Shown here: positions 17,027-58,400 of the stretch, in pieces
Layout: the number at the start of each line of letters is the position of its first letter
How positions within the stretch are numbered: the stretch's first letter is position 1
Assembly (NCBI RefSeq): GCF_016026235.1
Contig: NZ_CP065613.1
Source of the DNA: Escherichia coli
GTDB taxonomy: Bacteria; Pseudomonadota; Gammaproteobacteria; Enterobacterales; Enterobacteriaceae
Length of the DNA stretch: 64,000 nt
Strand: one strand, 5' to 3'
Position numbers and translations under genes: made by a program
Notes under the pieces: model-generated
What the model was told of the DNA's origin: nothing
Seen by the model: the letters and a program-made list of their open reading frames with translations, nothing else
Databases searched by the model: none

Positions 17027-17272
17027 TGGAGCACCTCAAAAACACCATCATACACTAAATCAGTAAGTTGGCAGCATCACCAAAGGGGCTGATGAAAATG
17101 CCAGCACAATACGATTAAATTAATTAAAACCCCACAAATAAATTAAACATAAGATTTTACTCATTATGTTTTATTTCTCACAATGATGACGACTGCATGA
17201 AATAATGATATTTTAATGAGCATTCAGAAAAAATATCGATGCATTTCGAGCGAAGATGGTGGGGATCCCTGA

Positions 17273-30182: not shown

Positions 30183-30665
30183 ATGACGAAGAAAAAAGCA
30201 CATAAACCTGGTTCAGCGACCATCGCGCTTAACAAGCGCGCCCGTCACGAATACTTTATCGAAGAAGAGTTCGAAGCGGGACTTGCCCTGCAAGGCTGGG
30301 AGGTTAAATCCCTGCGCGCAGGAAAAGCCAATATCAGCGACAGCTACGTCCTTCTGCGTGACGGAGAGGCATTTCTGTTTGGCGCTAACATCACGCCAAT
30401 GGCCGTGGCCTCCACGCATGTGGTGTGCGACCCTACCCGTACCCGCAAGTTACTTCTCAACCAGCGCGAACTGGACTCATTGTACGGTCGCGTCAATCGA
30501 GAAGGCTATACCGTAGTGGCGCTCTCCCTGTACTGGAAAAATGCCTGGTGCAAAGTGAAAATCGGCGTCGCCAAAGGTAAGAAACAGCACGATAAACGTT
30601 CAGATATCAAAGAGCGCGAATGGCAGGTGGATAAAGCGCGTATCATGAAAAACGCCCACCGTTAA
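30183..30665 (+). CDS. smpB: SsrA-binding protein SmpB
   Basis: 160 aa [45 protein letters not shown]... Confidence 0.96.
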
Positions 30666-30879: not shown

Positions 30880-31242
30880 GGGGCTGATTCTGGATTCGAC
30901 GGGATTTGCGAAACCCAAGGTGCATGCCGAGGGGCGGTTGGCCTCGTAAAAAGCCGCAAAAAATAGTCGCAAACGACGAAAACTACGCTTTAGCAGCTTA
31001 ATAACCTGCTTAGAGCCCTCTCTCCCTAGCCTCCGCTCTTAGGACGGGGATCAAGAGAGGTCAAACCCAAAAGAGATCGCGTGGAAGCCCTGCCTGGGGT
31101 TGAAGCGTTAAAACTTAATCAGGCTAGTTTGTTAGTGGCGTGTCCGTCCGCAGCTGGCAAGCGAATGTAAAGACTGACTAAGCATGTAGTACCGAGGACG
31201 TAGGAATTTCGGACGCGGGTTCAACTCCCGCCAGCTCCACCA
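30880..31242 (+). ncRNA. ssrA: tmRNA (SsrA), 363 nt
   Basis: Begins GGGGCTGATTCTGGATTCGACGGGATTTGCG, contains the tag-encoding segment GCAAACGACGAAAACTACGCTTTAGCAGCTTAA (ANDENYALAA) and ends with the tRNA-like GGTTCAACTCCCGCCAGCTCCACCA. Confidence 0.97.
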
Positions 31243-31445
31243 AAATTCTCCATCGGTGATTACCAGAGTCATCCGATGAAGTCCTAAGAGCCCGCACGGC
31301 GCAAGCCCTGCGGGCTTTTTTGTATCTGCAATTTGTCCCGCGAAGTCCGAAGAGAACTAATTAAATCCGAACCTTTTAGGCCCATTGATAGGCCCAACGA
31401 AAAGCTCTATTGTTTTCGTTGGGCCTAAACGCATGGAGACTCCCC

Positions 31446-32687
31446 ATGGCAAGAAAAACCAAGCCGTTAACCGATACGGAAATCAAAGCCGCCAAACCTA
31501 AAGATGCCGATTACCAGCTGTATGATGGTGACGGGCTTACTCTGTTAATCAAGTCCAGTGGTAGTAAGCTCTGGCAGTTCCGTTACTATCGACCTCTGAC
31601 AAAGCAGCGAACCAAGCAGAGCTTCGGTGCCTACCCTGCCGTCTCACTTTCTGATGCGCGTAAACTCAGAGCCGAATCTCGAGTTTTATTGGCAAAAGAT
31701 ATTGATCCTCAGGAACATCAGAAAGAACAGGTGAGGAATTCTCAAGAGGCCAAAACCAACACCTTCTTGTTAGTTGCCGAGCGTTGGTGGAATGTGAAGA
31801 AAGCCAGCGTGACAGAGGACTATGCCGACGATATCTGGCGCTCGCTTGAGAGAGATGTTTTTCCAGCAATCGGTGATATCAGTGTCACTGAGATTAAGGC
31901 TCATACTCTGGTTAAAGCAGTTCAGCCGGTTCAGGCTAGAGGTGCATTAGAAACTGTTCGCCGTCTTTGTCAGCGTATTAACGAAGTCATGATTTATGCG
32001 CAGAACACGGGCCTGATTGATGCGGTTCCCAGCGTAAATATCGGAAAAGCGTTCGAGAAGCCTCAGAAAAAGAACATGCCGAGCATCCGGCCTGATCAAC
32101 TGCCTCAACTGATGCAGACGATGCGAACAGCAAACATCAGCCAATCAACACGATGCCTGTTCATGTGGCAGCTTCTTACTATTACCCGTCCTGCCGAAGC
32201 CGCTGAAGCTCGATGGGATGAGATCGATTTTGAAGCTAAAGAATGGAAAATTCCTGCAGCTCGAATGAAGATGAACCGGGACCATACGGTTCCATTGTCT
32301 GATGGAGCTCTCGCTATTCTGGCAATGATGAAGTCACTCAGTGGTGGCCGAGAATTTATCTTTCCTAGTCGAATCAAACCAACCCAGCCGATGAATAGCC
32401 AAACAGTGAATGCAGCACTCAAACGTGCTGGATTGGGAGGCGTTCTCGTTTCTCATGGCTTGCGTTCTATCGCCAGTACCGCCCTTAATGAACAAGGCTT
32501 CCCACCTGATGTTATTGAAGCGGCGCTGGCTCATGTGGACAAAAATGAAGTACGTCGCGCTTACAATCGCAGCGATTATCTTGAGCAGAGACGCCCGATG
32601 ATGCAGTGGTGGGCAAACCTTATAAAAGCGGCAGATAGTATTCCTACCGTTTGTAACGAAGTAGCAGGTCTTAGATTGGTTGGGTAG
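31446..32687 (+). CDS. intA: P4/CP4-57-type tyrosine integrase (site-specific recombinase)
   Basis: ORF 31410..32687; start taken at MARKTKPLTDTEIKAAKPKDADYQLYDGDGL (413 aa); sits directly 3' of ssrA, the classic attachment site of CP4-57-like elements; C-terminal HGLRS and Y-containing catalytic region. Confidence 0.9.
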   Translation: MARKTKPLTDTEIKAAKPKDADYQLYDGDGLTLLIKSSGSKLWQFRYYRPLTKQRTKQSFGAYPAVSLSDARKLRAESRVLLAKDIDPQEHQKEQVRNSQEAKTNTFLLVAERWWNVKKASVTEDYADDIWRSLERDVFPAIGDISVTEIKAHTLVKAVQPVQARGALETVRRLCQRINEVMIYAQNTGLIDAVPSVNIGKAFEKPQKKNMPSIRPDQLPQLMQTMRTANISQSTRCLFMWQLLTITRPAEAAEARWDEIDFEAKEWKIPAARMKMNRDHTVPLSDGALAILAMMKSLSGGREFIFPSRIKPTQPMNSQTVNAALKRAGLGGVLVSHGLRSIASTALNEQGFPPDVIEAALAHVDKNEVRRAYNRSDYLEQRRPMMQWWANLIKAADSIPTVCNEVAGLRLVG

Positions 32688-32698: not shown

Positions 32699-32750
32699 TC
32701 TCAAGTGATTATCCTTAGAAAAGATAATCACTTGAGATAATTGAAATTTT
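32699..32750 (+). terminator. hairpin terminator after the integrase gene
   Basis: Perfect inverted repeat TCTCAAGTGATTATC-cttagaaaa-GATAATCACTTGAGA followed by AATTTTTATT. Confidence 0.7.
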
Positions 32751-33162
32751 TATTGGATTAAGGCAAAACCATGCTACATTAATTAAGATAGTTTAAAATA
32801 GCATTTATATAGATATATGTTACACTTTCTAAAAAAAATCGCGAAAAAGGAAATATGATAACAATCATATTTTAGAAGTTGACATAATACATACCAAATT
32901 TATCGTGCTATGAACACTACATTAACCTTTTATTTTTTCATAACAAGCAAGCAAAAATGATGAATACAATAGAAATTCACCGCAAACAACCAAACATAAC
33001 TCTAGCCCAGCACATACAAAATAAAAGACTACAACTTGGAAAAGAAATCTCCAAAAAATACAAGATTTATCTCGACTTAAGGTTCTGGTTTTTTTTAGAG
33101 ATATTGAGCTTGGGAATAATAACGATCGAGACTTAATTAATCTCCTACAAAAAATAAAGTAC

Positions 33163-34032
33163 TTGGTTGATAATGGAAAGGTAGTTTGCCCTATATCTGC
33201 TACTGTTTTTTTAGAACTAATGAAACAGAACGATATCGAAACAAGGATGGCCACAGCCAAAATTATTGATCATCTGAGTTTTGGAGTTACACTTATAGCT
33301 AGTCATGAGAGAGTCAAACAAGAATTATGTAATGCTACGTATTCGATTTTGGGAGCTAAGGACAGCATTCCAATTGATCAATTAGTATGGACCAAACTAA
33401 GTTATATTTTCGGCGATTACCATCCATACGATACATCTTTCGATGCAGCTGAAGAACTGATCATTCAGAAATCTTTTTTTGATCATATGTGGGATATTTC
33501 ACTCGTTGAAATGATGAACCATATCAACTATGAAAGCTGGGAACAATTTGATTGGCAGAAAACAACAGAAATGCTTAACTTGGCTAATAAAGAGCATACC
33601 AATGAGCTTAGAAGCTATCAACACGCATATCGTATTGAGTTCGACGGAGTGTTAAGCCTTTTCAACGAGCAATTAATCCAGATATTCAAAGAGGCTTACA
33701 AGGCCGGATATAACAATGATGAAATTAATAATAAGAAAAAATCAAAAAATGAAAAACTTAAACAATTTGCACAATTAGTCCGTACTTTACATATTGGTGC
33801 CTCTTGTCATGCTGCAGTAAGATGGGATCAGAAACGCCAGCTCAATGGTAATGATCTTTTAGATTTTCATCATGCCGAAGCAGCTTTAGGATATTGTGAT
33901 TTATTTTTGACTGAAAAACCTTTGAAAGTTCTAGTGAGTCAAGAACATTTGGGATTAAGAGAATTATTCTCATGCTCTGTTGAGTCATCAGCTAGTGAAG
34001 GGCTCAAGATACTTAACATGTGTAAAATATAA
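33163..34032 (+). CDS. hypothetical protein, AT-rich island cargo (no family recognised)
   Basis: 289 aa ORF (TTG start in the track; the true start may be an internal ATG); low GC; convergent with the 565 aa gene. Confidence 0.55.
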   Translation: MVDNGKVVCPISATVFLELMKQNDIETRMATAKIIDHLSFGVTLIASHERVKQELCNATYSILGAKDSIPIDQLVWTKLSYIFGDYHPYDTSFDAAEELIIQKSFFDHMWDISLVEMMNHINYESWEQFDWQKTTEMLNLANKEHTNELRSYQHAYRIEFDGVLSLFNEQLIQIFKEAYKAGYNNDEINNKKKSKNEKLKQFAQLVRTLHIGASCHAAVRWDQKRQLNGNDLLDFHHAEAALGYCDLFLTEKPLKVLVSQEHLGLRELFSCSVESSASEGLKILNMCKI

Positions 34033-34068
34033 AAATTAAGAATATTTCATATTACTAAATCTATAAAC

Positions 34069-34100
34069 TTTAGAGGTCATTTTCATAATTGAAGCTGACC
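34069..34100. terminator. hairpin between convergent island genes
   Basis: AGAGGTCA-ttttcataattgaagc-TGACCTCT inverted repeat. Confidence 0.5.
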
Positions 34101-34185
34101 TCTCACCCGCTCGATAAGTCTCACACAACTATGACTAAGATTGGCAAGTATTATCCCCCCCAATTATCATCTATTACAAAAATAG

Positions 34186-35883
34186 CTAATCATCTATTTT
34201 AAAATCAAAAATCCTTAAAATATCATTAAATGATGCTTCACATTGCCCCACAAGGCTAGTGAAGTGTGCACGTAGATTTTCATGATCGGTACGCGCTTCT
34301 AATATCGCTTTCTTCTTTTTTTCTGTAGAAGCATGTCCGCGTACTTCGGTTCGTAGAGCATGCAGTTTTTGCATAGGCTGAACTAACATTTTCGCTTCAT
34401 CTACTGTTGCACTTTTAGCAATAAGAGCTTCTTGTAGTATGCGCAAGGATCCCCATTTGGGTTCAATGATTCGGCCCTCATATTTAGCAATTTCACTCAG
34501 TGGCTTTGGTAAAAAGCCCTCAACTAAATACTGATCAAGCGCAAGGATTTCATCACCCCACTCTTTGATTGAATCTGTTGCAGGATACTGAACAGCGCCA
34601 CTCAATACTGTACCCCGTGGCTTCCACCAGGTGGGAGGATTCTTGTCCATTAGCGAAATTTTGTGTTTGAGTGCCAACAATGGTTCATTGGACAGATACC
34701 ATTCCCCAACAATATCCGTCTGAAATGCACGCTTAGAAATTGTTCCTTTTGGCCATTCATTGAAGGCTTGCCAATAGAGCTGTTCTTCATAAGGTAAATG
34801 AGCCAAATCACCAATGTATACATGAACTTGCCCGGCCTCATTAATATCATAGGATTTTAAATACCAAGCATTTCGACAAGCAATACTTCTTTCATCTAAA
34901 GTATATTTTTCTGGATCCGCCTTGAAACGATGTAACACTTCTGCTCTAAAAAAGGCAGGTGAAACTTCCCACGGTAATTTATTTTCTTGAAAATAGTTAG
35001 ATAGTGAGTCTGGTCCGCAAGATGTTTCAACATTGCAGCTATTTTTACGATCGTATATTTTAAAGGTTGCGTATTTCCTTTTAGATGGATTATCTTCATC
35101 CTTCCATGCTTTTACCAGACCGCGCACAGTTACTTGAGGGCGAATGATCATTACACCATTACAGTAACTGGCTTCCCCGTTAATACCACCATGATAAAAA
35201 AGACTCCCTTCATCTTTAGTATATCTGTTGATATTCCCCCAGCCAGCAAAATTACCCCATCTGACACGTGTAAAATCAAACTTTAAAACAAGACATGTTT
35301 TGGATAAAGCCATGAATGTATCTAAATCCTTTCTCTTAATAGTAACTATATCCAGATAGTTAAAAGGAGGTGAAATATTTTTGTTAATTATCCTGATTAC
35401 ATCTTCAATATCACCCCGTTCATCGAGACGACAATATGCATTTCTTTCTGGCAAGTAATATAACCCAAGGCTGTGCACAAGTTTCTGACTTAATTCGATA
35501 GGTGCACGGCCTTCTTCAACGCCATGAAACCTACGACGATAAATTAATGCCTCTCCCCCTTTGAACACCCCATCTAAAGGTGGCTCAAGATAAATACGAT
35601 GTCCTTGACCTCCACCCCATGACTTTTGAATCTTCCAACAATACTCAACATCCATACGCATATTCTGCAATGCCCATCTATCTGCTGTAGTAACATTTTT
35701 CTCTAGAGCTAGCGCGCCATGAATTAGGACACTATTTCCAATCGCGTAGATAACCACTTCATCATTTTGAGCATTTTCTTTCAGAAATTTAATTGACCTT
35801 TCAGCCTCTATTAACCAAGCGGCATCATCATTCTGTGGCTTTTCCGAAATAGCATGAAGCTCTGTGAATTTAAATTGGCTCAT
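34186..35883 (-). CDS. hypothetical protein, 565 aa (island cargo; no family recognised)
   Basis: Long uninterrupted ORF starting MSQFKFTELHAISEKPQNDDAAWLIEAERS...; AAGGA upstream of the ATG; lies directly downstream of the STAND operon. Confidence 0.7.
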   Translation of the reverse strand: MSQFKFTELHAISEKPQNDDAAWLIEAERSIKFLKENAQNDEVVIYAIGNSVLIHGALALEKNVTTADRWALQNMRMDVEYCWKIQKSWGGGQGHRIYLEPPLDGVFKGGEALIYRRRFHGVEEGRAPIELSQKLVHSLGLYYLPERNAYCRLDERGDIEDVIRIINKNISPPFNYLDIVTIKRKDLDTFMALSKTCLVLKFDFTRVRWGNFAGWGNINRYTKDEGSLFYHGGINGEASYCNGVMIIRPQVTVRGLVKAWKDEDNPSKRKYATFKIYDRKNSCNVETSCGPDSLSNYFQENKLPWEVSPAFFRAEVLHRFKADPEKYTLDERSIACRNAWYLKSYDINEAGQVHVYIGDLAHLPYEEQLYWQAFNEWPKGTISKRAFQTDIVGEWYLSNEPLLALKHKISLMDKNPPTWWKPRGTVLSGAVQYPATDSIKEWGDEILALDQYLVEGFLPKPLSEIAKYEGRIIEPKWGSLRILQEALIAKSATVDEAKMLVQPMQKLHALRTEVRGHASTEKKKKAILEARTDHENLRAHFTSLVGQCEASFNDILRIFDFKIDD

Positions 35884-35927
35884 GAGTAATATTCATATCC
35901 TTTTACTTTATCTATAACTGACATCAC

Positions 35928-35976
35928 TTATAAGTTATAAGTTATAAGTTATAAGTTATAAGTTATAAGTTATAAG
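35928..35976. repeat. perfect tandem heptanucleotide repeat (TTATAAG)x7
   Basis: 7 exact head-to-tail copies read directly from the sequence, in the 120-bp gap between the stop of the 482 aa gene and the start of the 565 aa gene. Confidence 0.95.
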
Positions 35977-36002
35977 TTCCCCTTATGAATTAAGAAATAA
36001 CA

Positions 36003-37451
36003 TCAAACAAATACCACCCCTCTCGTAATTTTTTCACTGAATCTGCCATAACTTCCATTACGATGGAATCTACGTACTTGCCAAGAGTAAAATGAGCGCA
36101 ATGACCCGGTATTTGTTATGTTTCTCTCGCGATATGTAGTGCCTCGCGATATGAGGGCTGTCCCACAATTACCTTGAATTTGCCCTAGCCTAGCTGGCCC
36201 CCATCCAGCATTCCAATAATAAAGCTCTGCGACGACTAGGTCCTTTAACTTAACCTGTAGACGCCCATCATGCGGGATGACTTCAAGAGAATTTTCTATG
36301 CCTGGCATCGTCGGTAAAAATAACCGGGATGGATACAAATCATGTTGTAGGTATCCTATCCGACCAAAATCGAGCATTCCCGCCAATGGCCAAGCCATAC
36401 AAGTTTTATTCACCAGTTGTTCAAAAGTTGGTGGAGTTATTAAGGTTGTTGTACTGAGTGGATCCGGAGCTTGGCTGGAAAGCATTTGTTCACGTGTCCA
36501 GAACGATTCAATATGGGATGTCAACGAGTCCGCTCCTTCCTTATCACTGCTTACAGTTTGTGACCACCGAACAATCGACAACTCTACGCACTGTTCCATT
36601 GACATTGAAATGGGCGAGCTAAATGCAATTAGCTCGTCTCCTGGGTTTGCCGCCTCTACTTGAGCAAAGAAAGTTCGCAATGAAGCCTCGATCGCCTTAC
36701 TATCACTTTTGAATTCAGTCGATACTGAGAGCCATTCGGGACGATAAGGTCGAAGAAAAGCCAAAGTTGGATGGATAGGCAACGCCAAGAGAGAATGTTG
36801 CTCGGTCAACTCCATTGGTATCCTCCAGATGTGTCTAGCCACAGCTAACGTGCGAAGATAAGCGGAAATTACGCGAAGGGCTGTTCGAGAGGAAAAATGA
36901 GGGGCAAAGCCCTCTCCCAAGGGCCGAATGAAATATCCTGCATCCCCTTGGTACGGTGCATTTGGATATGCCGTCCGGTTTTTTGTCCATTCGAAGGCCA
37001 TTTGTCGAATAAATGGACAGCGGGTAAAAGTTTCCAACTTGCTAATGGTTATATGGAAGATTCTTGGCAAATCCGTACCTTGAACACTATCAAAGTCATC
37101 GGGAATGATGAAGTCTTCTGGAGCTAGTTCCAAATCAGTATTCATGAGCAGAATCGATAACCCAAAATCTTTCATCAACAATGATGAAAGTGGTGAGGGT
37201 AGAAGAATATTCTCTGCCAACAAAGTCGTAGGAAAGTAGTTAAACTCTTTAATTGCCATCCAGAAAATACATAATACTTCGACAACCTCGGCTTCAAGTT
37301 TGCGCGAGCGCAGCAATTGAAGCAGCAATGATTCGGTTTCAGCTTTCGTCTCAGGCTCTCCCAGTCGAGCGGCAAGCTCCTGGATAGTCCACCACCGAGC
37401 AGACGTAGCAGGCCATCCAAGACGGGCAATAAGAATGCGAAGATCGTTCAT
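36003..37451 (-). CDS. hypothetical protein, about 482 aa, third gene of the STAND operon
   Basis: ORF 36003..37496; start more likely the ATG at 37451 (MNDLRILIARLGWPATSARWW...) because it overlaps the stop of the upstream gene as ATGA. Confidence 0.7.
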   Translation of the reverse strand: MNDLRILIARLGWPATSARWWTIQELAARLGEPETKAETESLLLQLLRSRKLEAEVVEVLCIFWMAIKEFNYFPTTLLAENILLPSPLSSLLMKDFGLSILLMNTDLELAPEDFIIPDDFDSVQGTDLPRIFHITISKLETFTRCPFIRQMAFEWTKNRTAYPNAPYQGDAGYFIRPLGEGFAPHFSSRTALRVISAYLRTLAVARHIWRIPMELTEQHSLLALPIHPTLAFLRPYRPEWLSVSTEFKSDSKAIEASLRTFFAQVEAANPGDELIAFSSPISMSMEQCVELSIVRWSQTVSSDKEGADSLTSHIESFWTREQMLSSQAPDPLSTTTLITPPTFEQLVNKTCMAWPLAGMLDFGRIGYLQHDLYPSRLFLPTMPGIENSLEVIPHDGRLQVKLKDLVVAELYYWNAGWGPARLGQIQGNCGTALISRGTTYRERNITNTGSLRSFYSWQVRRFHRNGSYGRFSEKITRGVVFV

Positions 37452-40400
37452 TTCACTTCCTGGGCGATTGGCTCGAGCAGTTTTGACATCCAGCAAGGTG
37501 GTTCTAAGGGCAAGGTCCGAGTATCCTCAATCACACAATTAACCATCGTCTCTGTGAACTTTACAGCTTCATCAATGCGATTTTGCTTAACGTAGAAATA
37601 GACCATAACTTCCGATGGAGCTAGGCGTGACGACACTGGCTCATCAAACATGTTGTAGGTTGTTACGGCCACAAATTCATCACAGCGCTGCGGATAATTT
37701 TGGACAACCAGGTCGAGTCTTTTGCAAGTCACATCCACGTTCTCCATGTAACCAATCCATCCCCCATTACGGATCTGTGCATGAACAAGATACTTCCAAG
37801 CTGCAGTTAAGCCACTTAATCTACGTTTTGTTTGAAATGCAAACTCGGAAAGATGTAGAGCTTCCCTCATCCATTTGTTGTTTTTTGCAAATAAAATCTT
37901 ATCCAGTTCGACGAGTAAATTTCGCCCCTGCTTTTGGCTTTCCCAGTGCTGATACCAAGTACGGAGAAGTTTTGGACGCTCTTTGTAATATGGTTCCAGA
38001 ACTTTGAGCAAGTCTTCCAATTGTTCAGGTCTAAAGACCGTCACATCACCTTCATAAGGTTTATTGTCAGCGTCACTACTTGAATTTTCGTGGCGTTGTA
38101 AACAACCAATATCCCATCCATTATGCTCTTCAAGAATGCGAAGCCGCTCGGAAGCAGTTGTACAACCATCCTCTACAAGTTGTTGAAGTGTATCCCGAAT
38201 TTCGGGATGAAGGCCTGTGCGCATTAGAGCATCCAGAGGCCACTCTTCAATGATTCCCTGTTTGATGTAGGCCTGCATACTGCTCTCGGCCAAAGCCCAG
38301 TCACCCACACATGTATGCTCTTCAAATTTTATTACCAATGCGGAAGGCTTCAGCTTTGCCAGTAGCCGATCTGCTTCAGCAAGAACATGTCTCGTACCCT
38401 TACCATCGGTGTAATCCAAAACATGGTGTATTTGCGGCGCAATTTTAGCCAGTAACCGACAAGCTTCTTTCGGCACTACATCAACTAAATAAGCGATGGC
38501 ATCAACCGTATTACTCAGTGTCGGATCTTTACGATGTCCGTATCCAGTGGTCAATTCCCACGTCTGCGTGCAAAGCTCACGAGCCTCCGAATTCAGTTGA
38601 TGGGAGATCGCTATCGCACAGAGTTGTAATGGTATTTGAAGATGTACACTGGTCTCATTTTGAATGTCTGCATCAAGTAACAAACGTTGAGCGCCAATGA
38701 ATGTTATAGCCGCTTCGTCGGCCATTCTGATCAATGAACCAGATGCGTACTGAGTGCGGAATGACGCACTATCGAACCAAGCGCATTGCAACGCAGCATC
38801 AATAGTCGATTGGGAAAGTACCACAGCACTAGTTCCCGAAAGCAGAACACTACCAATATATATATCGCAAGCAATACGGTGTAGTGCCGCTTGAAAGTCC
38901 GCCGTTGCCGATTTTCTAAAATAACTTTGTCTAAATCGCCGCGATTCAACAGGCTCGAGTAATTCATACAGCTCATGGAAGTTGATGAATTCCCCACACC
39001 ACCATCGTTGGGCTATTTGTGCACCAATTCCGGACAGTACATTGAGATAATCAGTAATATCTTCTCTATCTTCGTACATAGGGGCTTTGATGTGCTCGAA
39101 GTTTGTTTGCCCTTCTGCAATCATACAAAGATTCAGATGTACGGCACCAAACAGCCAGTGGTGCGTGAGAGTTGCCAAATTATCTTTGTGTTTGTAATAG
39201 CTGTCGCTTATCCAGTTCACCGGGATTGGTTGGCTCGAAGGAGTTGAGGTTTTGATTAACGCGACCTCTATTGCAGCCACAAATGGAGTTCTGACAAGTT
39301 CGTCGAAGTCCTCTCGCTCGGTCACTACTACCCCTGCAACCGCAGCCGCTCGTATACAAGCATCGCTAATTATGTTCTTTTTCTGTCCATCGGGTAGAGA
39401 AGCTGCTAGCAACATTAAATCATCCAAATTACCTTTTTGAATCAGCATTTGAACGCGAGGTAACCATATGTCCGGGCTATTTTTGTCGACTAACCAAGCG
39501 AGATTTTCAGATGTATCAGCGATAACGCCAAGCTGTGTAAATGCACTGGCCAGAAACAAGAGTTCATCAGAACCAGCCCTTGAATTATATTTATTGGAAA
39601 ATTGGCATAGGGCTCTGAACCGATGAAAGGCTTCTTCACCGCAAATTTCTGCCTGAATAATATCCCCTCGAGACAGTAAGGCCAGACCAAGTGCAACAAC
39701 GTGTAAAATATCCGTTTCATGCCTAGAGGCTATAGACTCACGTATCACACTTTCCTCTGAGGTTAGTGTCAATGTAAAAGATATGAGCCTAGCCAGATCG
39801 CTATCCTGCATCTGAAATTGACTTCCATCAACCATACGAGCTTTCAGATGCGCCAACCGGTAGGCATCTGAAAAATTTGCAGTTTCAAGCGCAGCGCTCA
39901 GGGCTTCTGACAATAATATCTCAAATAAAGCTTCTGAATATCCTTCTTTTAAGCGACTCATGATCCAGTCACGAGTTAAACCTGTAATGAGATTGTTGGG
40001 GTTACCAAGCTTCGCTTGAACTGTCCATAACCAGTTCACTCGTAGTGAAGTAGGTGCCTGATGTTCAAGCCAGTCTGCAATAACAGGCATTAATTCATTG
40101 ATTCGACTCTCATAGTCATCAGTTGCACGTACGAAAACAGCCAAACTTTCATGGAAGACTTTAAGACCAGCCACAGACGAATGGAGCAAATGCTCTACTT
40201 TATCCACATCTGGTTCCACCGCCTTAATTTTGGTAGCAATCTCTGAGAAGGCTGTCTTAGGCCAGAAAAAAGTAAAGGCACAGATAAGCCTTAGCGTATC
40301 CTTTTGGCTTGGAGCAAGACGTTCCCATAGAGATGCATAGTAAAATCGGGCGTCTTGGCTCAAGTCTCCCTTCAACTGCTCAATATCCCAACTGGATAGT

Positions 40401-41875
40401 CTGCGACCCGAATGTTTCAATTCTGATGTAGCATAAATAACGTGAAGAGGATGGCCATTAGTTTTCTTACGAAGAGCGGATGCTGCACTCTGCAGTTGTT
40501 CTTCAATTTGTTCTTCACTTTCAAAACCAGTTGTAAGCCAGCCTTCTTGAACTGTTCTACGTAGATAAGAAAGTACTGCACTCTCAGACATTGCAGGCAA
40601 TGTATGCCACTCAGATTTTGGTGCAAAGGCGAGCAAATCCGCTGGCAACTGTTCGTCATTTACCGGTTGAGTGCCGACGAGCAGTACCATATTTTCCGGG
40701 CAGGGAATTACCTGACAGAAAAGGTCATCTAGTGGTCGTTTATCCTCAGCGTTGATACGCCAGACATGATCCAAACCATCAAGAATGAGCACAAATGGCT
40801 TTCCCAGTACTTTGTAGTGGGCAGCACATGCCTCCAATTGTGTATGTAAGCCTCCACCAGTTTTCGGGACATCCTCGTGAAACTGTTGGATCTGCGCCAG
40901 AATGGATTGCTCGACAATGTAGCTATTAACCCGGTCGCGGCCTCGCTCGGTTGTCGACAGAAAATAGTGATGGCGAACCGTTGGGATACCTTTTTCTGCA
41001 AGCGTGTCGCACAGTGCGCTCAGGTAAGTACTCTTTCCGCGTCCTGGTGGACCAGTCAGCACAATTGCCTTTCCGGTAGCATTAATTGTGCTCTGGACAA
41101 ATTCTTGATGGAATATTTCATCAGGAACCTCATAACCTTCTGGAACAACAAAATCCTCTGGCAAAGGAGCTGGAGGTGAAGCTCGCAAGATGGTTCCAAC
41201 CTCTGCCAGTTTAATCCAGCCATCCGGCGCAGGGAGATTTTTTTGCGTTGCCCAATTCAGAGCCACATATTTTAGATTAGCGATTCCCTCTGGCGTACCA
41301 TGCAGTCGAAGGCGAGCATCAACTTCATGCTCCAATGCAAGATAGCCCTTATCGCTGTGTCGAATACATAATTGTCTGAAGAAAAGTTTGCATTCCTCAA
41401 CGCCGCCGAGTTCAACTTCTACCAAGGTGCGCTGAGGTTCTGGGATCTTAGAAGGATCAATCCGGTCTCGTTCCAGACAAACCTCAATAGCAGCATCTGG
41501 TCGGCGATTCGTTATGAGCGAAATTTCGCCAATACGCACTGGATCAAGTTGTTTGAAAGCATCGAACCATTTGCGTAGCATCGATCTCGACCGCTCTGTC
41601 TTGCCCGTTTTCTCCAGCATCCAATCCCAAGATAGAAGATGCGTCTCAGAATCTGGGGTGAACTTGATCTGCTGAAGGTCAACGAAGCCATCACTTCGTT
41701 CGATGACGATATCATCTAGTCCCTGTGGTGCTTCGTTTTCATTATCACATTCAAATTTCACGCGGCTATAGCGCGTCGGCGCATCAAGCCAATCGCACAG
41801 GACCTTAAGGCCCTGGCGATTTTGATAAATATAACCAGCTGCAGTGATGGCGGTTTTCTTAATATCTTCACTCAT
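37448..41875 (-). CDS. STAND-class P-loop NTPase (NACHT-like) with N-terminal nuclease-like domain and long C-terminal helical region; candidate anti-phage sensor/effector
   Basis: 1475 aa; Walker A VLTGPPGRGKST, Walker B FVLILDGLDHV (hhhhDGLD, NACHT-type); N-terminal ~250 aa contain ...GLDDIVIERSDGFVDLQQIKF (D...QxK, restriction-endonuclease-fold-like); C-terminal ~1000 aa helix-rich with no enzymatic motif. Confidence 0.8.
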   Translation of the reverse strand: MSEDIKKTAITAAGYIYQNRQGLKVLCDWLDAPTRYSRVKFECDNENEAPQGLDDIVIERSDGFVDLQQIKFTPDSETHLLSWDWMLEKTGKTERSRSMLRKWFDAFKQLDPVRIGEISLITNRRPDAAIEVCLERDRIDPSKIPEPQRTLVEVELGGVEECKLFFRQLCIRHSDKGYLALEHEVDARLRLHGTPEGIANLKYVALNWATQKNLPAPDGWIKLAEVGTILRASPPAPLPEDFVVPEGYEVPDEIFHQEFVQSTINATGKAIVLTGPPGRGKSTYLSALCDTLAEKGIPTVRHHYFLSTTERGRDRVNSYIVEQSILAQIQQFHEDVPKTGGGLHTQLEACAAHYKVLGKPFVLILDGLDHVWRINAEDKRPLDDLFCQVIPCPENMVLLVGTQPVNDEQLPADLLAFAPKSEWHTLPAMSESAVLSYLRRTVQEGWLTTGFESEEQIEEQLQSAASALRKKTNGHPLHVIYATSELKHSGRRLSSWDIEQLKGDLSQDARFYYASLWERLAPSQKDTLRLICAFTFFWPKTAFSEIATKIKAVEPDVDKVEHLLHSSVAGLKVFHESLAVFVRATDDYESRINELMPVIADWLEHQAPTSLRVNWLWTVQAKLGNPNNLITGLTRDWIMSRLKEGYSEALFEILLSEALSAALETANFSDAYRLAHLKARMVDGSQFQMQDSDLARLISFTLTLTSEESVIRESIASRHETDILHVVALGLALLSRGDIIQAEICGEEAFHRFRALCQFSNKYNSRAGSDELLFLASAFTQLGVIADTSENLAWLVDKNSPDIWLPRVQMLIQKGNLDDLMLLAASLPDGQKKNIISDACIRAAAVAGVVVTEREDFDELVRTPFVAAIEVALIKTSTPSSQPIPVNWISDSYYKHKDNLATLTHHWLFGAVHLNLCMIAEGQTNFEHIKAPMYEDREDITDYLNVLSGIGAQIAQRWWCGEFINFHELYELLEPVESRRFRQSYFRKSATADFQAALHRIACDIYIGSVLLSGTSAVVLSQSTIDAALQCAWFDSASFRTQYASGSLIRMADEAAITFIGAQRLLLDADIQNETSVHLQIPLQLCAIAISHQLNSEARELCTQTWELTTGYGHRKDPTLSNTVDAIAYLVDVVPKEACRLLAKIAPQIHHVLDYTDGKGTRHVLAEADRLLAKLKPSALVIKFEEHTCVGDWALAESSMQAYIKQGIIEEWPLDALMRTGLHPEIRDTLQQLVEDGCTTASERLRILEEHNGWDIGCLQRHENSSSDADNKPYEGDVTVFRPEQLEDLLKVLEPYYKERPKLLRTWYQHWESQKQGRNLLVELDKILFAKNNKWMREALHLSEFAFQTKRRLSGLTAAWKYLVHAQIRNGGWIGYMENVDVTCKRLDLVVQNYPQRCDEFVAVTTYNMFDEPVSSRLAPSEVMVYFYVKQNRIDEAVKFTETMVNCVIEDTRTLPLEPPCWMSKLLEPIAQEVK

Positions 41876-41879
41876 AGCA

Positions 41880-44800
41880 TCAAGGTATGTTTAGTTCGGT
41901 TTTGATCCAAGTGTCCAAAGTGTCTACACGTACAAACTGGGTCGGAACAGGATATGGCGGATGAACCATCCAGTAGTACACATCGCGGCTTACATAGAGT
42001 TCAATATTCCTTAAAGGAACACTCTCTGGCTGTGGCCACTGGAGCAGTTCAAGCAACCTTGAACGGTGAGTTTCGAGAAATTTTCTGCGGTCTAAAATAC
42101 GACTGAATTGTCCTGCCCTGTCATTCTCTGCCTTGCCAAATATCCGATCACGAAGACGACGGCTATCTTTCATTGTAAATGGCGGCTGGTTGTACTTACA
42201 CTCTACTGTCACGAGCAAATTGCTTTCCGGCCAGTATGCAAAAACATCGAAATCACCAACGTCATCAAACTTCTCTTCCCGGAATCTTCTAAAGAAATCA
42301 ATACCTCGCTGAACATAAGGTGTATGCCTGCGGAATATTTCCTCTGTACGAAGCTCGAGACGCTTTTCAATACTCTCCTTAACCTCGCGAATGACTGGCT
42401 TAACATGAGGCCAATCAAATTCCGCAGGCAAATAACCGTCTCGTACCGCCGACATCCAAATGTACATTGCCCGGCTTGCCGACTCTGCCCCCCAACGCAA
42501 ATCGGCACCATCAATTACCAGCGGCTTGATAGTGTATCGATCGATTCGCTTATTCCGCTCCCAATATGGAATATCTCCTTCATCGATATCCCTTCCAACG
42601 AGCCTACGAACTCCTACTTCCGAAAGAGTCAGAAAAGCAACAATCTTTTGGGCCTCAGAATAGTCAAGCCTATCAATGCTATCAGCCAACCCTCGCGCAA
42701 GGCGATCAGGTGCTGCAGCATAAGACAAGGAAAGTTCGTTCCCGAATCCATATCGTTGAGCTTGCGATAACACAGCGAGAACAGTGAGCATATTCTGAAG
42801 CTCGAACCCCAAATCGGTGATAAAAGCTTTTTTGAGTTTCTCTGAAGCCAGCAACCCCTCTGGCTCTCCTTCCACCGCATCCTTGTCATTTGTGCCAAGC
42901 CCCAACCTGGACTTCGCATACTCCTTTGCAAAGGTAGCCTCACGATCACCAAAATCTGTCGAATAGAAAACTTCTGGAATATATGAGTCGTCGATCTCAA
43001 CACCACCCACATCTATACCATTGTGAAGGGTATCACTGGCACCAGTCAGCACCATGAACCAATCAACCAAGCCAACTAATTCTCGTAGTACATCCTCTGT
43101 AACTCTATCTACACCATTTGAAGATAAATTGACGGTCTTCTCTAGTAGATATCGATAATGGCGGGCCTTATCACCGAATTCTTTGCGTGCATGTTCTATC
43201 GCATCAAGTCTGTCATACTCAACTTCATGAGCAAGACTCAAACGGGCTCGTTGGATTCTAGTCCTCTCAGTAACAAGGAGGGCATCGTGTTGCTCGATGA
43301 ATGCCTGCAGAAGCTGATGCCTATCAAATGCTGCAAGTCGATTCTCAATGTGAAGACGCATGCGAGCACTGGAAGGATCAATCCTGGCCTTGGCATCTGA
43401 CAGTTCATACCTGCCAGGAATAAACCCAAGCCCCATGATTTCTGCGGCCAGTTTTCTACGGGCAAGCTTGTAATCGGTAGGCGAAGGAATTATAGGGTAT
43501 ACATAGTCGGGGACATCAATATTACGGGTCATGACTTTTAAATGATAACGAGCCGCTTGCGACGCTATATGAGTAAATCGTTGAGCAAATTCATCAGGCA
43601 TCTGCAAACCAAGTACTGCATGACATTTTTCGAGCGTTTCCAGTAAGCAACGAACCTCGAATGATCCATCCTTGGAAAGATTTAATCCAGCAAGCACTGC
43701 ACGTGTATCAACTTGAACGTGAAATACATCGGGGTTGTGGGAATCCGGGATGACTGAAGTCACCACGTGTTTAAATTCGTCTAAAGAAGAAGGACTCTCT
43801 TCAGCTTTAACCAGACTAGATGGTTCAGGGGAGCACGTAAACAAAACATGCGGCTGCCTAAATAGAGAAATATCAGACATCATTTTTCTGCAGCGATAGC
43901 TACAGTCGGCCAGAAGTTGGGCAAAAAGGTCTATCAGACGTCCATCTTCAAAGCGTAATTCTTTGGTTATTTCTATTAATGTTTGAACGGTACAGGAACC
44001 AATCGATGTTGAGTATGCCATCGCTTTGTGATGACGCGATTCAAGTCGAACGACACCTTCAGTTGAAGAACTCAACGTCCATCCGATAGAGCTGTCTGGA
44101 AATACCTTGGGTGCACGAGACCAGAATTCTGTCAATATCTTGAAGCGCCAAGAAGTCCCCCAGTGAGGGTCTAGCCCAATGAAGTTAGGTGCAATCGCAC
44201 CTTCGACAAGCACACCATGCATGTCTTTGAATGATGCAAACAGGTCTACTGTTCCACGGGAAAATGGGCTGAGCGTCCCCTCTTGAGCATCTGTAAATTT
44301 CCAATAACTTTCTAATTCTTCCAGATCGTTGAGACTATCAAAAATCGTGATGAAATCCGCTAATGGAAACAAACGAGTTGGCTTTGAGGGGAGATTGATG
44401 GAATTAAACGCAGTACCCGCGAGTGTAACGACAATAACGATGTGAAGCTCATCGACGCTAGGTTCTGCACCAACTCTAGATAGAGAAAGGAAACGTCCAT
44501 CATCAAGACGGAAGAAAATCGGCGATCCACGACTCACCTTGGCGTATATGCTTTCCGCTGCGTTTGACAGGCGGTCATTAGATGTATGGTCACATGTGCA
44601 AATGAGATATATCCCAGAATTACCCAGTATAATACAACTGATAGGCAGGTCTTTGCAGGCGGTGCCGTCAACATACAGAGTCAAAGGCCCTATAAGGGTT
44701 CTTTGGAATCGCTCAGCGACAAACTCTGCAAGTTTCCTGTGCGTAGAGGGGCTAATCCCGTTCAGATTTTTGTTAGCCCAATGGTCAATAATGAGACCCG

Positions 44801-45662
44801 GTGCACTGCGTACTGACATTGGTATCCATACCCTATCCATCTCGACAGCAAGGAAAGGTAGCGCCATGCCTTGCATCACTGCATTTCCGAACGCATCCGG
44901 TTTCAGCGGTGCTTTGAAAGTGCCAACACGAGTATCGAACGTACACCCTGCTTTCTTTCGGCGGTTCGCTAGCTCATTGCCAAGTTGTTGAAGCAAAGAC
45001 TTGCAAGTCAACCAGAAGTCTTCAGTAGCTAGTTCAACATCAGCACATTGGGCCTCGGTGTTGACAGAGAGCATCAACTCAGGAATCGATTCGATGATCT
45101 GCGCTTGCAGCGCAATGGCAAGATCCATATGGGCTTGTGCTTCTGGAATATGAGCATAGGTAATGCGAAATGCTTCTACGAAGTCAGACATTCTCTCAAT
45201 GCAACTCCCGTAGAACATAGGGACGAAGTCTTGACCAAGCCGTACTTTGATTTGCCCCCAATCAGCCTCGGGGGAAAAATCCTCAAGCATTGGGAATTCA
45301 GGCCATGATGCGTATAATTCTTTTGTAAATACTTTAAAATCTACATAGCTATCAATCGATATACCTACCTGAGACTCAAATGGCAGCTCTAAAAGGACAC
45401 ACCAAGCAAAAATATGCTTTATGGGGCTACCTGTATTGGCTGGCCAGAGTTCGGAAGTAAATAATGCAACTGCTACGTCGAGGGTTTTGTATCGGCGAAA
45501 TAAATTCTGGGTGGCTTCCAGATGCTTACAAAAGTATGTGTCTTCACCTACCCCATTCGTAAACAATTCACGATATCTGGACATATCGTGTATCAAAGAA
45601 TCATAATCAACCTTTTGCTCTGTTAGTTTTCTTTCCCGCTTTTCACGTGACTTCCTACCCAC
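41880..45662 (-). CDS. large protein (1260 aa) with C-terminal PD-(D/E)xK-like nuclease motif; first gene of the STAND operon
   Basis: GTG start preceded by GGGAGGA Shine-Dalgarno; no Walker A found on reading; C-terminus has GDFDVFAYWPESNLLVTVECKY (D-x15-ExK); stop lies 4 nt before the start of the STAND gene. Confidence 0.75.
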   Translation of the reverse strand: MGRKSREKRERKLTEQKVDYDSLIHDMSRYRELFTNGVGEDTYFCKHLEATQNLFRRYKTLDVAVALFTSELWPANTGSPIKHIFAWCVLLELPFESQVGISIDSYVDFKVFTKELYASWPEFPMLEDFSPEADWGQIKVRLGQDFVPMFYGSCIERMSDFVEAFRITYAHIPEAQAHMDLAIALQAQIIESIPELMLSVNTEAQCADVELATEDFWLTCKSLLQQLGNELANRRKKAGCTFDTRVGTFKAPLKPDAFGNAVMQGMALPFLAVEMDRVWIPMSVRSAPGLIIDHWANKNLNGISPSTHRKLAEFVAERFQRTLIGPLTLYVDGTACKDLPISCIILGNSGIYLICTCDHTSNDRLSNAAESIYAKVSRGSPIFFRLDDGRFLSLSRVGAEPSVDELHIVIVVTLAGTAFNSINLPSKPTRLFPLADFITIFDSLNDLEELESYWKFTDAQEGTLSPFSRGTVDLFASFKDMHGVLVEGAIAPNFIGLDPHWGTSWRFKILTEFWSRAPKVFPDSSIGWTLSSSTEGVVRLESRHHKAMAYSTSIGSCTVQTLIEITKELRFEDGRLIDLFAQLLADCSYRCRKMMSDISLFRQPHVLFTCSPEPSSLVKAEESPSSLDEFKHVVTSVIPDSHNPDVFHVQVDTRAVLAGLNLSKDGSFEVRCLLETLEKCHAVLGLQMPDEFAQRFTHIASQAARYHLKVMTRNIDVPDYVYPIIPSPTDYKLARRKLAAEIMGLGFIPGRYELSDAKARIDPSSARMRLHIENRLAAFDRHQLLQAFIEQHDALLVTERTRIQRARLSLAHEVEYDRLDAIEHARKEFGDKARHYRYLLEKTVNLSSNGVDRVTEDVLRELVGLVDWFMVLTGASDTLHNGIDVGGVEIDDSYIPEVFYSTDFGDREATFAKEYAKSRLGLGTNDKDAVEGEPEGLLASEKLKKAFITDLGFELQNMLTVLAVLSQAQRYGFGNELSLSYAAAPDRLARGLADSIDRLDYSEAQKIVAFLTLSEVGVRRLVGRDIDEGDIPYWERNKRIDRYTIKPLVIDGADLRWGAESASRAMYIWMSAVRDGYLPAEFDWPHVKPVIREVKESIEKRLELRTEEIFRRHTPYVQRGIDFFRRFREEKFDDVGDFDVFAYWPESNLLVTVECKYNQPPFTMKDSRRLRDRIFGKAENDRAGQFSRILDRRKFLETHRSRLLELLQWPQPESVPLRNIELYVSRDVYYWMVHPPYPVPTQFVRVDTLDTWIKTELNIP

Positions 45663-45959: not shown

Positions 45960-46195
45960 CTTTCACATTTTCATCCTCCGCTATCCGCCCTGATCAGTTA
46001 CCACAGCTAATGCAGACAATGCGAAATGCCAACATTATTTTGCCTACTCGATGCTTGTTCATGTGGCAACTTCTAACTATCTCACGACCCGCAGAAGCGG
46101 CAGAAGCTCGTTGGGATGAGATCGATTTTGAAGCTAAAGAATGGAAAATTCCTGCAGCTCGAATGAAGATGAACCGGGACCATACGGTTCCGCTA
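45960..46195 (+). pseudogene. truncated second copy of a P4-type integrase (internal fragment only)
   Basis: Encodes ...IRPDQLPQLMQTMRNANIILPTRCLFMWQLLTISRPAEAAEARWDEIDFEAKEWKIPAARMKMNRDHTVPL, matching residues ~215-285 of the intact integrase at 31446..32687; 80 bp (46112..46191) are identical to 32214..32293; no N- or C-terminal part present. Confidence 0.85.
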
Positions 46196-46622
46196 GGTTC
46201 GCGAGGCCTGAGCTTGGCGCAGCTATCGCCAGCAGAATCACCGCTGATGCAAGTGGCGCAGGCGCAGTTAAAGCATCTGTTACCCGCACATCTGATGGCT
46301 TCATTTTCGCCGTTTTTTAGTCAAGCGGGACACACTTCCTAGCCACAGCAAACGGGCGCTGAGAGAGTGGGAATGGCCGCAGAAGGTGCGGGTGGTCGCG
46401 GCCAGTCAGCCGCTCCTACCACCGGTGATCCAGGAAGGCATGTTTGACGCGGTCAGTGAAGCGCTTTACCAAGACCCTTGGCTGAACATTGATTACCGCA
46501 ATGCTCAAGATACTCGCCGTCAGGCGGAGGTGATGCCCCTTGGTTTTAGTCCTACAGGGCTCACGTCTGCAAAGCTAATGGGAAGAGTGTGGTACTCACT
46601 CTCTCCCATATAATCTTCCAAA

Positions 46623-46850
46623 CTATGGCGAAACAGGCGTTAGCGGTTTTTTTACTTTGCTCAAAATCCAGGCATCAATCTCGGATTCTAGCCACCCCAC
46701 CGTCTTTGCTCCCAGTTTCACCCTTTGGGGAAATGTCGGATCATGACGATCAGAACTAGGGTCAAGCCAGTCGTATACCATTGAACGCCCAATGCCTAAC
46801 TTCTTGACAAGTGCAGGTACACGAAGGATTTTTACAGACTTTGGTTCCAT
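46623..46850 (-). CDS. alpA: AlpA-family prophage transcriptional regulator (HTH)
   Basis: 75 aa MEPKSVKILRVPALVKKLGIGRSMVYDWLDPSSDRHDPTFPQRVKLGAKTVGWLESEIDAWI, the AlpA pattern. Confidence 0.8.
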   Translation of the reverse strand: MEPKSVKILRVPALVKKLGIGRSMVYDWLDPSSDRHDPTFPQRVKLGAKTVGWLESEIDAWILSKVKKPLTPVSP

Positions 46851-55102: not shown

Positions 55103-55460
55103 ACGCTTAAATACAGAGCAGACTTAAGGAAAGCAAAATGCTAATCTCACAGACGAAGAGACTCCTGCTGTAACCTCCCCTCCCTGCAAAATACCTGACA
55201 TTTTCTTTTAGGACCAACAATGGGACCAAAATGAAAATTGAACTGAAGGTTATCAGCCATTAAACAACAAGTTACAAACCCAATTCAGACTCCGCCAGCC
55301 AATCATGATTGGACGGTGTAAGGACAACACCAACAAAAACAGGAAGTTAGCAGTCTCAGCAGGACACCGACCAGACGGTGAGGAGACAAAAAAGATACGC
55401 AAAGGAGCCGCGGCTCCTGGCGACATGAAAGCCCACAGATGTGGGCTTTTTCGTTGATGG

Positions 55461-58400
55461 TCAGAACGACCAGTTCACACCAGCCACCGCGTTCCACGGG
55501 GATTCCACATCGGCACCGTTGCTATACCCCACCCCGAGATGCCCGCTTAACGTACTGCTGAATGAGGCTTTAATACCTGCCTGGTATATTCCACGTCTGC
55601 CCGACAAATCATTGACGAAATTACCGTCATTATTCACCTTCACCCGGTTATCATCGACAAATTCTTTGCGCACAGCCGCCTTCAGCCACGGCTCAACTTC
55701 CATACCGTTTCCCAGACGCATGTTGTAACTCAGCGTTGCGCCCAGTTCACGATATATACTGCGGGTATCGACTGATTTCGATTTCATGCCATTGGATAAA
55801 TGATATTCGGGGTTATCAGCGGTGAACCCCGTTAACGATGCATACGGCGTCAGGTTCCAGTTACCATCGGTAAATCGCATCCCGGTTTCAATGTGCCCCC
55901 CCAGCCCGTTGCTGTGATAACTGCCGTTGGCGGCTCCACCGCTGCTCATTTTACCGGCTACGTTACTTTCAAAACGGTTCAGCTTCACGATACCGTCCAG
56001 ATAGAAACCACTTTCATGTTCCCAACTGGCATAGCCGCCCAGAGAATAACTGCCCACACTGCCATGTCCTCCACGATCAAAACCGATATGTGAATGGGAA
56101 TAACCCATAAAAGCGCCCAGCGTCGCAATCCCCTCAGGAATATCATTACGGCTGTCGATCCCCACTGTCATTCCGGTCAGCGTCTGCTCAAACCCGGCAC
56201 CCGCATCGGTGGTGACATTATTACGGGTGTTATACGTCGCCCCCCAGACATTATTGTTGTGTGGACTCGCTTTCATTATGTTCAACCGCTCGCGAATACT
56301 GTTTAGCTCAGCATCAAATACCAACGGTAATGTTGCAGCCATATTGAGTACGGCTGCCGTAGAAGGCGTGATGCGTTTCTCCGGAACGGGTGTCGGCGTT
56401 GGATCGGGAGTCGGGTCTGGTTTCGGATCCGGTTTTGGGTCTGGTTTTGGATCCGGCTTCGGATTTGGGTTGGGATTTGGGTTGGGATCCGGGTTGGGTT
56501 TGACATCATTGGTCAGGTTCCAGTTGCTGTTGCCGTCGCTTTTCAGGACATACTCATAGGTCCCAAGATCAACGAAACCGCCGGTATTGCCCAGCGTAAA
56601 CGAAGCATCCCCTCCCCCTGTTTTCACCAGCGTCATCGCATCGTCAGACTGAGGGCTGACGCCGGTATCCTGAACAAAGATTTTAAAATTACCAGTGGCG
56701 TTGTTGTTGACGACCAGTTGATCGCCCCGGGAGCCAGCAACGTTGGTATGCAGGTAGAAATTACCGCTGCCGGAAAGTTCATTGGTTGTCAGCGTATTGT
56801 AGATACCGTTAGTTGTGGCAGGCGCTGCTGTTTGTGCTGATAAATAAACATCACCGTCGTTGAGTAGCAAACTGTTTACTCTATATTCGCAGTTGCTGGT
56901 ACCTGCACAGGAATTATTGCTGTTAAGCCAGACACTGCCCCGGCTGGCAGCCGTCAGGTCGGCAAGCGTGGTATCGACGCCATTTCCCAGAGTTAATGTC
57001 GCGCTATCGGTAATCCGGACCGCCCCTTCAAGTTTTACTGGCGTAACATTATCCCGTGGCGTGATTAACGACAGGCTTCCTGTCGCGCCACTGACCGATG
57101 CATCCGCCAGCGTACCTGCGTAGACGATTGCCGTCCCGCCAGCGACCTGTAGATCTTCTGCCCGGGCCAGAGCCTGAAACTCATCTTTTGACCGCCCAAG
57201 GGTATATTGCCCACCAGAGTTAACCTTTGTGGCGGAGTCCTGACCCAGGTTTTGCATTGCACCACCCTTGCCAACCGTGGAGTCATGGGCTTCGGTACCT
57301 GCTAATACCAATAAATTACCACCATTTTCCAGCAACATATTGGTCGCTAAATTTCCGGCAATGGAAAAGGTGCCGTACTGGTGAGTACCGCTGATTTCAA
57401 TACCGTTAGCCGTGCTCGTCTGGAGAGCGGCACCGCTGTTCTGGACGATATCTGTCGCTTTGCCATTATCGTTGACTGTCAGCGTTCCGCCTTCATTGAT
57501 CGTTGTTTTTATTGCTTCTCCGTTAGCTGAAACTGTTTGTATTCCGCCGTCGTTAATTGTTGTCTCATTCGCCACACCCTCGACGATTTGTTCACCGCCG
57601 GTGAGCGTCGTGCCTGTCGCAGTGGCTTTTGTTTTGACGATCTCCCGTCCGCCCGTATTGACCTGTGTTTTGTCAGAAGAGGTGTCTGACTCCACGGTTA
57701 ACACGCCGCCATTTGCCAGCTGGATATTGTTCGCCGCATCCTGCTCAATGCTGAACGCGACGCCATCAGCGCGTGTCCCTGTGACCCGCGTCGCCCTGGT
57801 GGTTGCAACCAACGCGCCCTGGCTACTCTGCTGTATCCCCGTTGCGCTGCCTTTCTCCCGCACATCGAGTGTGCCGCCGTCATTAAGCACCGAGTTTTCA
57901 GCCAGACCGCCCTCATTAACTACCTGTGAACCCCCATTAATAATGGAACCTTCCGCTGTCCCGTTTGCCATAATTTGTTGTAGGCCAGAGACGATATCGG
58001 TATTGATTGCCTTACCATAATTCTGAACGGTTTGCGTGCCACCATTGATGTGTGTTTTCTCTGTTGACCCACCATCAACAATTTGTTCACCACTTTCGAT
58101 ATTTGCTTCAGTGGCTAAACCATATACCGTTTGCTTGCCACCTTTGATATTTGCTTTATCAGAAGTGGCACTGGCATATATTGTTTGGGTGCCAGCACTA
58201 TTGAGTACAGTGCCAACATCTTTTCCATAAACATCCATTTTGCCGTTGGCATTAATAATCGTGTCAACTGCCCGGGAACCAGTGACGACTGTTAATGAGC
58301 CAGCGTTTTCCAGCACTACATTTTTAGCTTCTGAATTCCTGATGTAGAAAGCATCACCATAACTGTTGGTTCCTTCGATAAGTGTTCCGGAGGTCGTGGA

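Follow-up and report, generated by a model that had tools for sequence, protein, structure and literature searches.

The GC-rich segment between a truncated integrase copy and alpA in Escherichia coli contig NZ_CP065613.1 (assembly GCF_016026235.1) is, with a probability of about 0.85, a pseudogene remnant of a gene encoding a wHTH-WYL-WCX regulator, made in an older ssrA island in the way reconstructed below. Its identity as the dead remnant of a WYL gene is close to certain; the reconstructed history, judged by itself, is probable at a clearly lower level of confidence. The remnant occupies 46194..46569 (+ strand) of the window, by which is meant the whole 64,000-nucleotide stretch that was analysed, and corresponds to codons 77-200 of a 330-codon gene. 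An earlier note on this DNA had called the segment an orphan, a label that should give way to “identified pseudogene remnant.”

The island around the segment

The segment belongs to an island integrated at ssrA. The tmRNA gene, found with ARAGORN (30880..31242, +), provides the integration site and the attL side, and smpB lies upstream of it (30183-30665; assigned because smpB is annotated at the syntenic place in other strains). An intact intA follows (31410..32687, +), a 425-aa open reading frame with 91% nucleotide identity to intA of the K-12 element CP4-57. At the opposite end, attR (55288..55301, +) is a degenerate copy of the ssrA 3' end (ACTCCGCCAGCCA, as against ACTCCCGCCAGCTCCACCA) and is therefore missed by searches for exact repeats. 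The sequence from about 55295 onward corresponds to what comes immediately after ssrA in strains without the island, and this match together with attR places the island at roughly 31243-55300, with the segment inside it.

The backbone begins at 46623 with an intact alpA (46623..46850, -), which encodes an AlpA-family HTH regulator (Pfam Phage_AlpA, 7.6e-17; “helix-turn-helix transcriptional regulator” in RefSeq), and continues with genes for a YfjI family protein, an inovirus Gp2/YfjJ-like protein, a GTPase, DUF932, an antirestriction protein and RadC; it also matches toxin-antitoxin genes of the CbtA/YeeU type. With its ssrA site, intA next to attL, degenerate attR and backbone of the alpA/yfjI/yfjJ type, the island is CP4-57-like, and it shares with the K-12 element the integration site, intA and the gene types from alpA through RadC, as well as CbtA/CbeA. 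Unlike CP4-57, it carries on the alpA side a rare allele set (11 of 5426 E. coli genomes), the closest named relative of its alpA (86%) comes from Erwiniaceae, and its int-alpA interval holds a NACHT cargo and two gene relics.

The cargo extends over about 13 kb (32700-45662) and includes genes for a 1475-aa NACHT protein (37448-41875, -) and a 1260-aa protein (41880-45662, -). The NACHT protein gives weak PADLOC matches to Avs1b (4e-11) and to N-terminal nuclease-type effector models, and the 1260-aa protein gives no PADLOC match; PADLOC leaves the pair unclassified, and only about 10 complete E. coli genomes carry it. Two genomes that carry only the first 2.8 kb of the cargo proved uninformative: in the one inspected (H200, L022), IS1 stands directly after the retained cargo and is followed by ordinary chromosomal genes, which reads as an IS1-associated deletion. 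Between two cargo genes lies a tandem array of about eight copies of the heptamer ATAAGTT (35923-35978). Just outside the island, a 1571-aa open reading frame (55461-60176, -) contains several internal direct repeats (families D2, D3, D5 and D13).

The source gene

In 200-nt windows, G+C is 0.535-0.585 over 46100-46599, against 0.31-0.43 just upstream and 0.38-0.47 downstream. An open frame (REWEWPQKVRVVAASQPLL...AEVMPLGF) runs through the segment; it contains no ATG, and its sole in-frame start is a GTG at 46386, which opens a 75-aa ORF. The G+C profile and the ORF scan thus agree with the original description of a GC-rich stretch with open frames and no credible start, and its neighbours are also those described: an integrase fragment on the left (Pfam Phage_integrase, 4.4e-15, partial) and alpA on the right. 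The borders first proposed (46196-46615) are accurate to within 1-2 nt on the left and lie about 45 nt too far on the right, where the WYL-derived DNA stops at 46569.

Translated across its frames, the segment matches weakly the first half of the Pfam WYL model (E 0.035, sub-threshold). On its own it reaches 14.5 bits over profile positions 2-37 of 70, below the cut-off of 21.8, and an NCBIfam scan of the translated fragment gives no match. A database search leads to three rare relatives. In one of them (P0003, from contig L003), an N-terminal HTH-like region runs directly into sequence of the window type, and another (contig L004) extends into a typical WYL motif, RLYLVCRFKGYDNERSL, and a C-terminal part. 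A composite of the relatives passes both the Pfam WYL model (37 bits against 21.8) and the PADLOC WYL models. Used as a tblastn query, the composite recovers three intact 330-aa genes, all with the annotation “WYL domain-containing protein” and all on plasmids, from Enterobacter asburiae, Citrobacter freundii and Raoultella planticola; species-representative genomes, when scanned, yielded further copies on the chromosomes of Mixta theicola, Citrobacter sp. and Yersinia rohdei.

On Pfam WYL, the intact proteins reach 43 bits (residues 158-223, profile positions 2-68 of 70), and they show a weak WCX match at residues 256-309. The family to which they belong counts 2491 cluster representatives at E <= 0.001, or 371 when the limit is set at 1e-30; most are about 320 aa long. 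The intact proteins are only remotely related to WYL proteins of solved structure (best E 4e-4, PafBC). The segment is homologous to this family over 374-376 nt, with 87-92% nucleotide identity to five intact genes and a tblastn E of 4e-49. The closest is the Mixta theicola gene (L008:10227-10600; 92.3% by blastn, 2 gaps); the others lie at 86.7-88.5%, the plasmid copy at L006:9228-9600 being 88.5% identical, also with 2 gaps. The earlier note had proposed to look for the source by BLAST among E. coli genomes, and had named membership of a complete, conserved gene in related islands as the finding that would count against its reading. Apart from the remnant itself, no copy turns up in 5426 complete E. 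coli genomes; the source lies on plasmids and islands of other Enterobacterales, where the gene is indeed complete; the window copy is still truncated and frameshifted.

Shortened versions of the gene are found elsewhere. In Limnobaculum allomyrinae it is independently truncated to its last 42 codons (L020:10001-10126), which precede an intact operon, and a short Logan contig keeps only codons 1-146 (L003:247-684). The WYL regulator seems to have been lost repeatedly. Three loci also carry a perfect palindrome, TGCGACAtagtcTGTCGCA, exactly 144 bp upstream of the WYL start codon (L003:103-121; L006:8857-8875; L008:9857-9875). The palindrome, a candidate operator of the WYL regulator, does not occur in the window, as expected from the loss of the gene's 5' part there.

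The integrase fragment and the three joints

The left neighbour of the remnant (45983..46193, +) covers codons ~225-296 of a 425-aa IntA-type tyrosine recombinase. It is 85% identical, in nucleotides and amino acids, to the corresponding part of the window's own intA (32085-32293), about 82% identical to intA of K-12 CP4-57, with the match ending at 46195, and 79% identical to the int gene of Mixta. Its catalytic domain is incomplete (Pfam Phage_integrase profile positions 3-77 of 172). The 17 private substitutions of this fragment are distributed 4/2/11 over codon positions 1/2/3, a pattern that fits a distinct, once-functional int allele with a smaller neutral component on top.

The two relics are bounded by three joints. 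The first (J1, 45982|45983) is the point from which integrase homology extends; on its other side lie 320 bp of AT-rich DNA, upstream of the gene for the 1260-aa cargo protein. At the second (J2, 46191-46195), homology to each of the three reference int genes ends and gives way to WYL homology, from 46194-46195 on; the two pieces are joined in frame, giving a 93-aa ORF that some annotations carry as a “hypothetical protein” (P0004). At the third (J3, 46569-46571), the WYL remnant meets the 3' flank of alpA. The pseudogene annotated by RefSeq as “tyrosine-type recombinase/integrase” ends at the equivalent of 46225, 30 nt into the WYL-derived sequence, and 46226-46622 is without any feature in the annotations of identical copies.

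The nature of J3 becomes apparent from sister islands. In three of them (L024, L025 and L030), homology to the window stops at 46571, and this common break suggested a site-specific cargo border at 46570. Such a border is ruled out: past that point the sisters have another stretch of about 160 bp in common that the window lacks, so that J3 is a deletion endpoint inside the backbone. The alpA of L024 and L025 is P0157, a protein named for Erwiniaceae with 86% amino acid identity to the window's alpA product; that of L030 is 92% identical. Just beyond alpA, at the position of the WYL remnant, the sister islands carry a CBASS system, which characterizes the int-alpA interval as a place of variable defence cargo. 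The CBASS genes (L024:10714-15647; L025-L029) encode JAB, Cap2/ThiF, SMODS and SAVED domains, and L024 and L026 additionally have AbiJ and PemK-like genes beyond alpA.

The intact arrangement in Mixta theicola

An unbroken version of the int-WYL order exists at ssrA in another genus. In Mixta theicola (L008), smpB (7067-7549), ssrA (7594-7957), an IntA-type integrase gene (8161-9401), the WYL gene (10001-10990) and an operon of six further genes (about 10983-17725) follow one another, with smpB through WYL on the + strand. The integrase is 84% identical in amino acids over residues 13-332 of the window IntA, with a second segment at 71%; its reading frame is split into ORFs 8161-9129 and 9150-9401, which may reflect a frameshift or an assembly error. 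The deletion of about 1216 bp from this locus (L008 9009-10226) recreates J2. The order and orientation of ssrA, int and WYL are thus those of the window relics, and the WYL gene is the remnant's closest relative; unlike the window, the Mixta locus still has an entire WYL gene with the operon behind it. The integrase fragment is nearer to the window's own intA than to the Mixta gene, so Mixta is a model of the arrangement and not the donor. The suggestion that the segment is the remnant of a former junction or of an older element was correct in substance: the integrase fragment plus the segment equals the int-WYL head of the Mixta island minus an internal deletion.

The gene that follows WYL matches JukA of PADLOC at 2.4e-58, and the next one matches the PADLOC candidate family PDC-M40B. 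The JukA-like gene stands after an intact WYL gene in six loci (L004 and L006-L010) and after the WYL stub in L020. WYL genes are reported to be among the most frequent defence-associated genes near jukA (10.1101/2022.09.17.508391). By tblastn, none of the operon genes, the jukA-like one included, is present in the window.

The seven-gene block headed by WYL is 91.5-100% identical in amino acids to that of pAR0468_1 (L006:9001-16713) across its full copies, which reside on Enterobacter and Raoultella plasmids and on Mixta, Citrobacter and Yersinia chromosomes (L008:10001-17725, with further loci L007, L009, L010 and L020); the six genes downstream of WYL are retained in Limnobaculum too. After WYL come the JukA-like gene (annotated as a ubiquinol-cytochrome C chaperone family protein), the gene for a 528-aa membrane protein (the PDC-M40B match), those for a radical SAM protein and a histidinol-phosphatase (PHP-type), and finally those for a 376-aa hypothetical protein and a 263-aa protein with weak glycosyltransferase matches. 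PADLOC recognises only the first two. The block could represent an uncharacterised Juk-type defence variant.

Distribution and proposed history

The 420-bp segment is present in 11 of 5426 complete E. coli genomes, in one copy each, at 99.8-100% identity and in every case between the integrase fragment and alpA. This alpA allele, the relic and the cargo are restricted to what is essentially one set of genomes. A further locus, L005, is a noisy long-read metagenome copy of the window locus and counts as no independent evidence.

The history would begin with an ancestral ssrA island in which int was followed by the WYL gene, its operon and, farther on, alpA, the first part being arranged as in Mixta theicola. 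A deletion of about 1.2 kb would have fused int codon 296 to WYL codon 77. A second deletion would have taken what followed WYL codon 200, namely the end of the gene, the operon and some 160 bp of the backbone, ending 52 bp past the alpA stop. A third break, at 45982|45983, would have cut off the first 224 integrase codons and joined the relic to a newer head, that is, an E. coli-like intA and the cargo of about 13 kb with the NACHT protein. The simplest route for the newer head would be a tandem integration at ssrA, followed by deletion of the newcomer's backbone, the hybrid att site and the 224 int codons. A search for an internal copy of the ssrA att core, lying between the two integrase sequences, found none (25-mer with <=3 mismatches; 12-mer with <=1 mismatch), so the tandem step is without a direct trace; a repeat search returns only the integrase duplication.

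The relic has accumulated about 5.6% private divergence, against <=0.2% among the 11 E. coli copies, so it was inactivated long before the island spread among these strains. The events ascribed to the older element may have taken place in another host, with the decay largely predating the arrival of the island in these strains. The same contrast is what would be expected if the relic had already decayed when it came in, either within the cargo or as part of a composite island acquired in one piece, and both the shared distribution of cargo, relic and alpA allele and the missing att remnant agree with such an arrival. This course of events is possible, although not the favoured one. It alters only the place of the events and not the identity of the segment; the int'-WYL' order still requires an ancestor headed by int and WYL such as that of Mixta, and the truncation of the backbone at 46571 means that the WYL remnant was joined directly to this backbone. 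The stepwise shortening of an int-WYL-headed ssrA island is the preferred account.

It is further conceivable, though very doubtful, that the int'-WYL' relic has been kept as a stretch of homologous sequence where the cargo interval borders on alpA. If so, incoming ssrA islands headed by int and WYL could swap whole defence cargos by homologous recombination; the locus would then record the replacement of a Juk-like operon by the NACHT cargo, and the relic would be the substrate for the next exchange.

Decay of the coding sequence

The remnant has lost both ends of the gene. Homology begins at codon 77, so that the winged-HTH region is gone, codons 1-76 being replaced by the integrase fragment, and it stops at codon 200, so that codons 201-330, with the end of WYL and the WCX part, are missing. 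The surviving codons cover the linker and, counted from its start, two thirds of the WYL domain, which is incomplete and falls under the Pfam gathering score. Relative to every intact gene, the window copy has two 1-nt insertions, at 46336 and 46544; the first shifts the frame and thereby brings a TAG (46340-46342) in frame, and tblastn accordingly places codons 77-123 and 125-197 in two different frames. A copy that holds only the frameshifted codons 77-200 cannot be a working regulator.

The substitutions point in the same direction. The window has 21 sites with a base that none of the five intact genes shows, and these private substitutions are spread 8/7/6 over codon positions 1/2/3, compared with 7/7/31 for the sites variable among the five intact genes (Fisher p=0.003). 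Against the Mixta gene alone, 18 of 27 differences would alter an amino acid. The pattern indicates neutral drift after the loss of function. An uninterrupted frame under purifying selection is thus not what the window copy presents: it combines two insertions, a TAG and a flat codon-position pattern.

The in-frame joint at J2 and the presence of the 93-aa ORF in some annotations might nevertheless speak for a small protein with a function, be it the int'-WYL' fusion (93-162 aa) or the product of the 75-aa ORF with the GTG start, acting for instance as a dominant-negative WYL partner. Such a role is highly improbable: a joint falls in frame by chance one time in three, neither ORF contains a complete domain, a scan of the + strand finds no promoter-like site, and the frameshifts, stop and codon-position pattern are those of a dead gene. 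The best explanation, with high confidence, is a relic that drifts neutrally and would be inert beyond separating the cargo from the alpA terminator.

The alpA flank and the base composition

Between the remnant and alpA lies a stretch of conserved island backbone (46571..46622, -), which forms a stable hairpin just past the alpA stop (-22.9 kcal/mol, z = -4.6 in RNA folding) and is, as judged from this fold, probably the alpA terminator. Promoter and terminator scans find nothing beyond this hairpin, and a scan with Rfam 15 gives no match at gathering score. A search of IMG/VR with the neighbouring 240-aa gene returns one locus, cut at a contig end; the hairpin sequence gives no match there. 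The hairpin directly after alpA might suggest that the segment works as a non-coding element, such as an sRNA, a regulatory 3' UTR of alpA or a recombination site. Such a role is very improbable: the hairpin is alpA backbone outside the WYL-derived part, Rfam offers only two sub-threshold, chance-level matches of miRNA models, both to the hairpin, and homology to a coding gene accounts for every base of the WYL-derived part.

The core of the segment (46194-46569) has a G+C content of 57.3%, compared with 45.2% for the island (31410-55000), and lies nearer to the core genome, which speaks for the captured fragment of a chromosomal gene suggested by the earlier note. This origin is already refuted for the collection searched and is extremely improbable overall: neither megablast nor blastn with a word size of 11 finds a second copy in the 5426 complete E. 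coli genomes, the source is a regulator gene on mobile elements of other Enterobacterales, and its matching stretch on a plasmid has the same composition (57.9%), so that the high G+C is inherited from the source gene.

Relation to known systems and significance

Regulators with a wHTH-WYL-WCX architecture are tied to defence, as in BrxR of BREX and CapW of CBASS (PMC9122601; PMC9122588; PMC11662680). The source gene resembles them in its 330-aa product, with an N-terminal HTH-like region, a WYL domain (43 bits) and a weak WCX part, and in being the first gene of an operon that opens with a JukA-like, defence-type gene; by this analogy, regulation of the operon is putative. The window copy is unlike BrxR and CapW in that it keeps only codons 77-200, frameshifted.

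For the strains that carry the island, a gap of about 400 bp in the RefSeq annotation is now filled by an identified pseudogene. The locus provides a small record of cargo turnover in ssrA islands, with a putatively WYL-regulated, JukA-like operon formerly, a NACHT-type cargo now and CBASS in the sister islands. The segment is an ordinary genomic scar, a previously unannotated gene relic of modest value; it adds no new mechanism, and its use lies in the annotation of such islands and in the history of defence islands.
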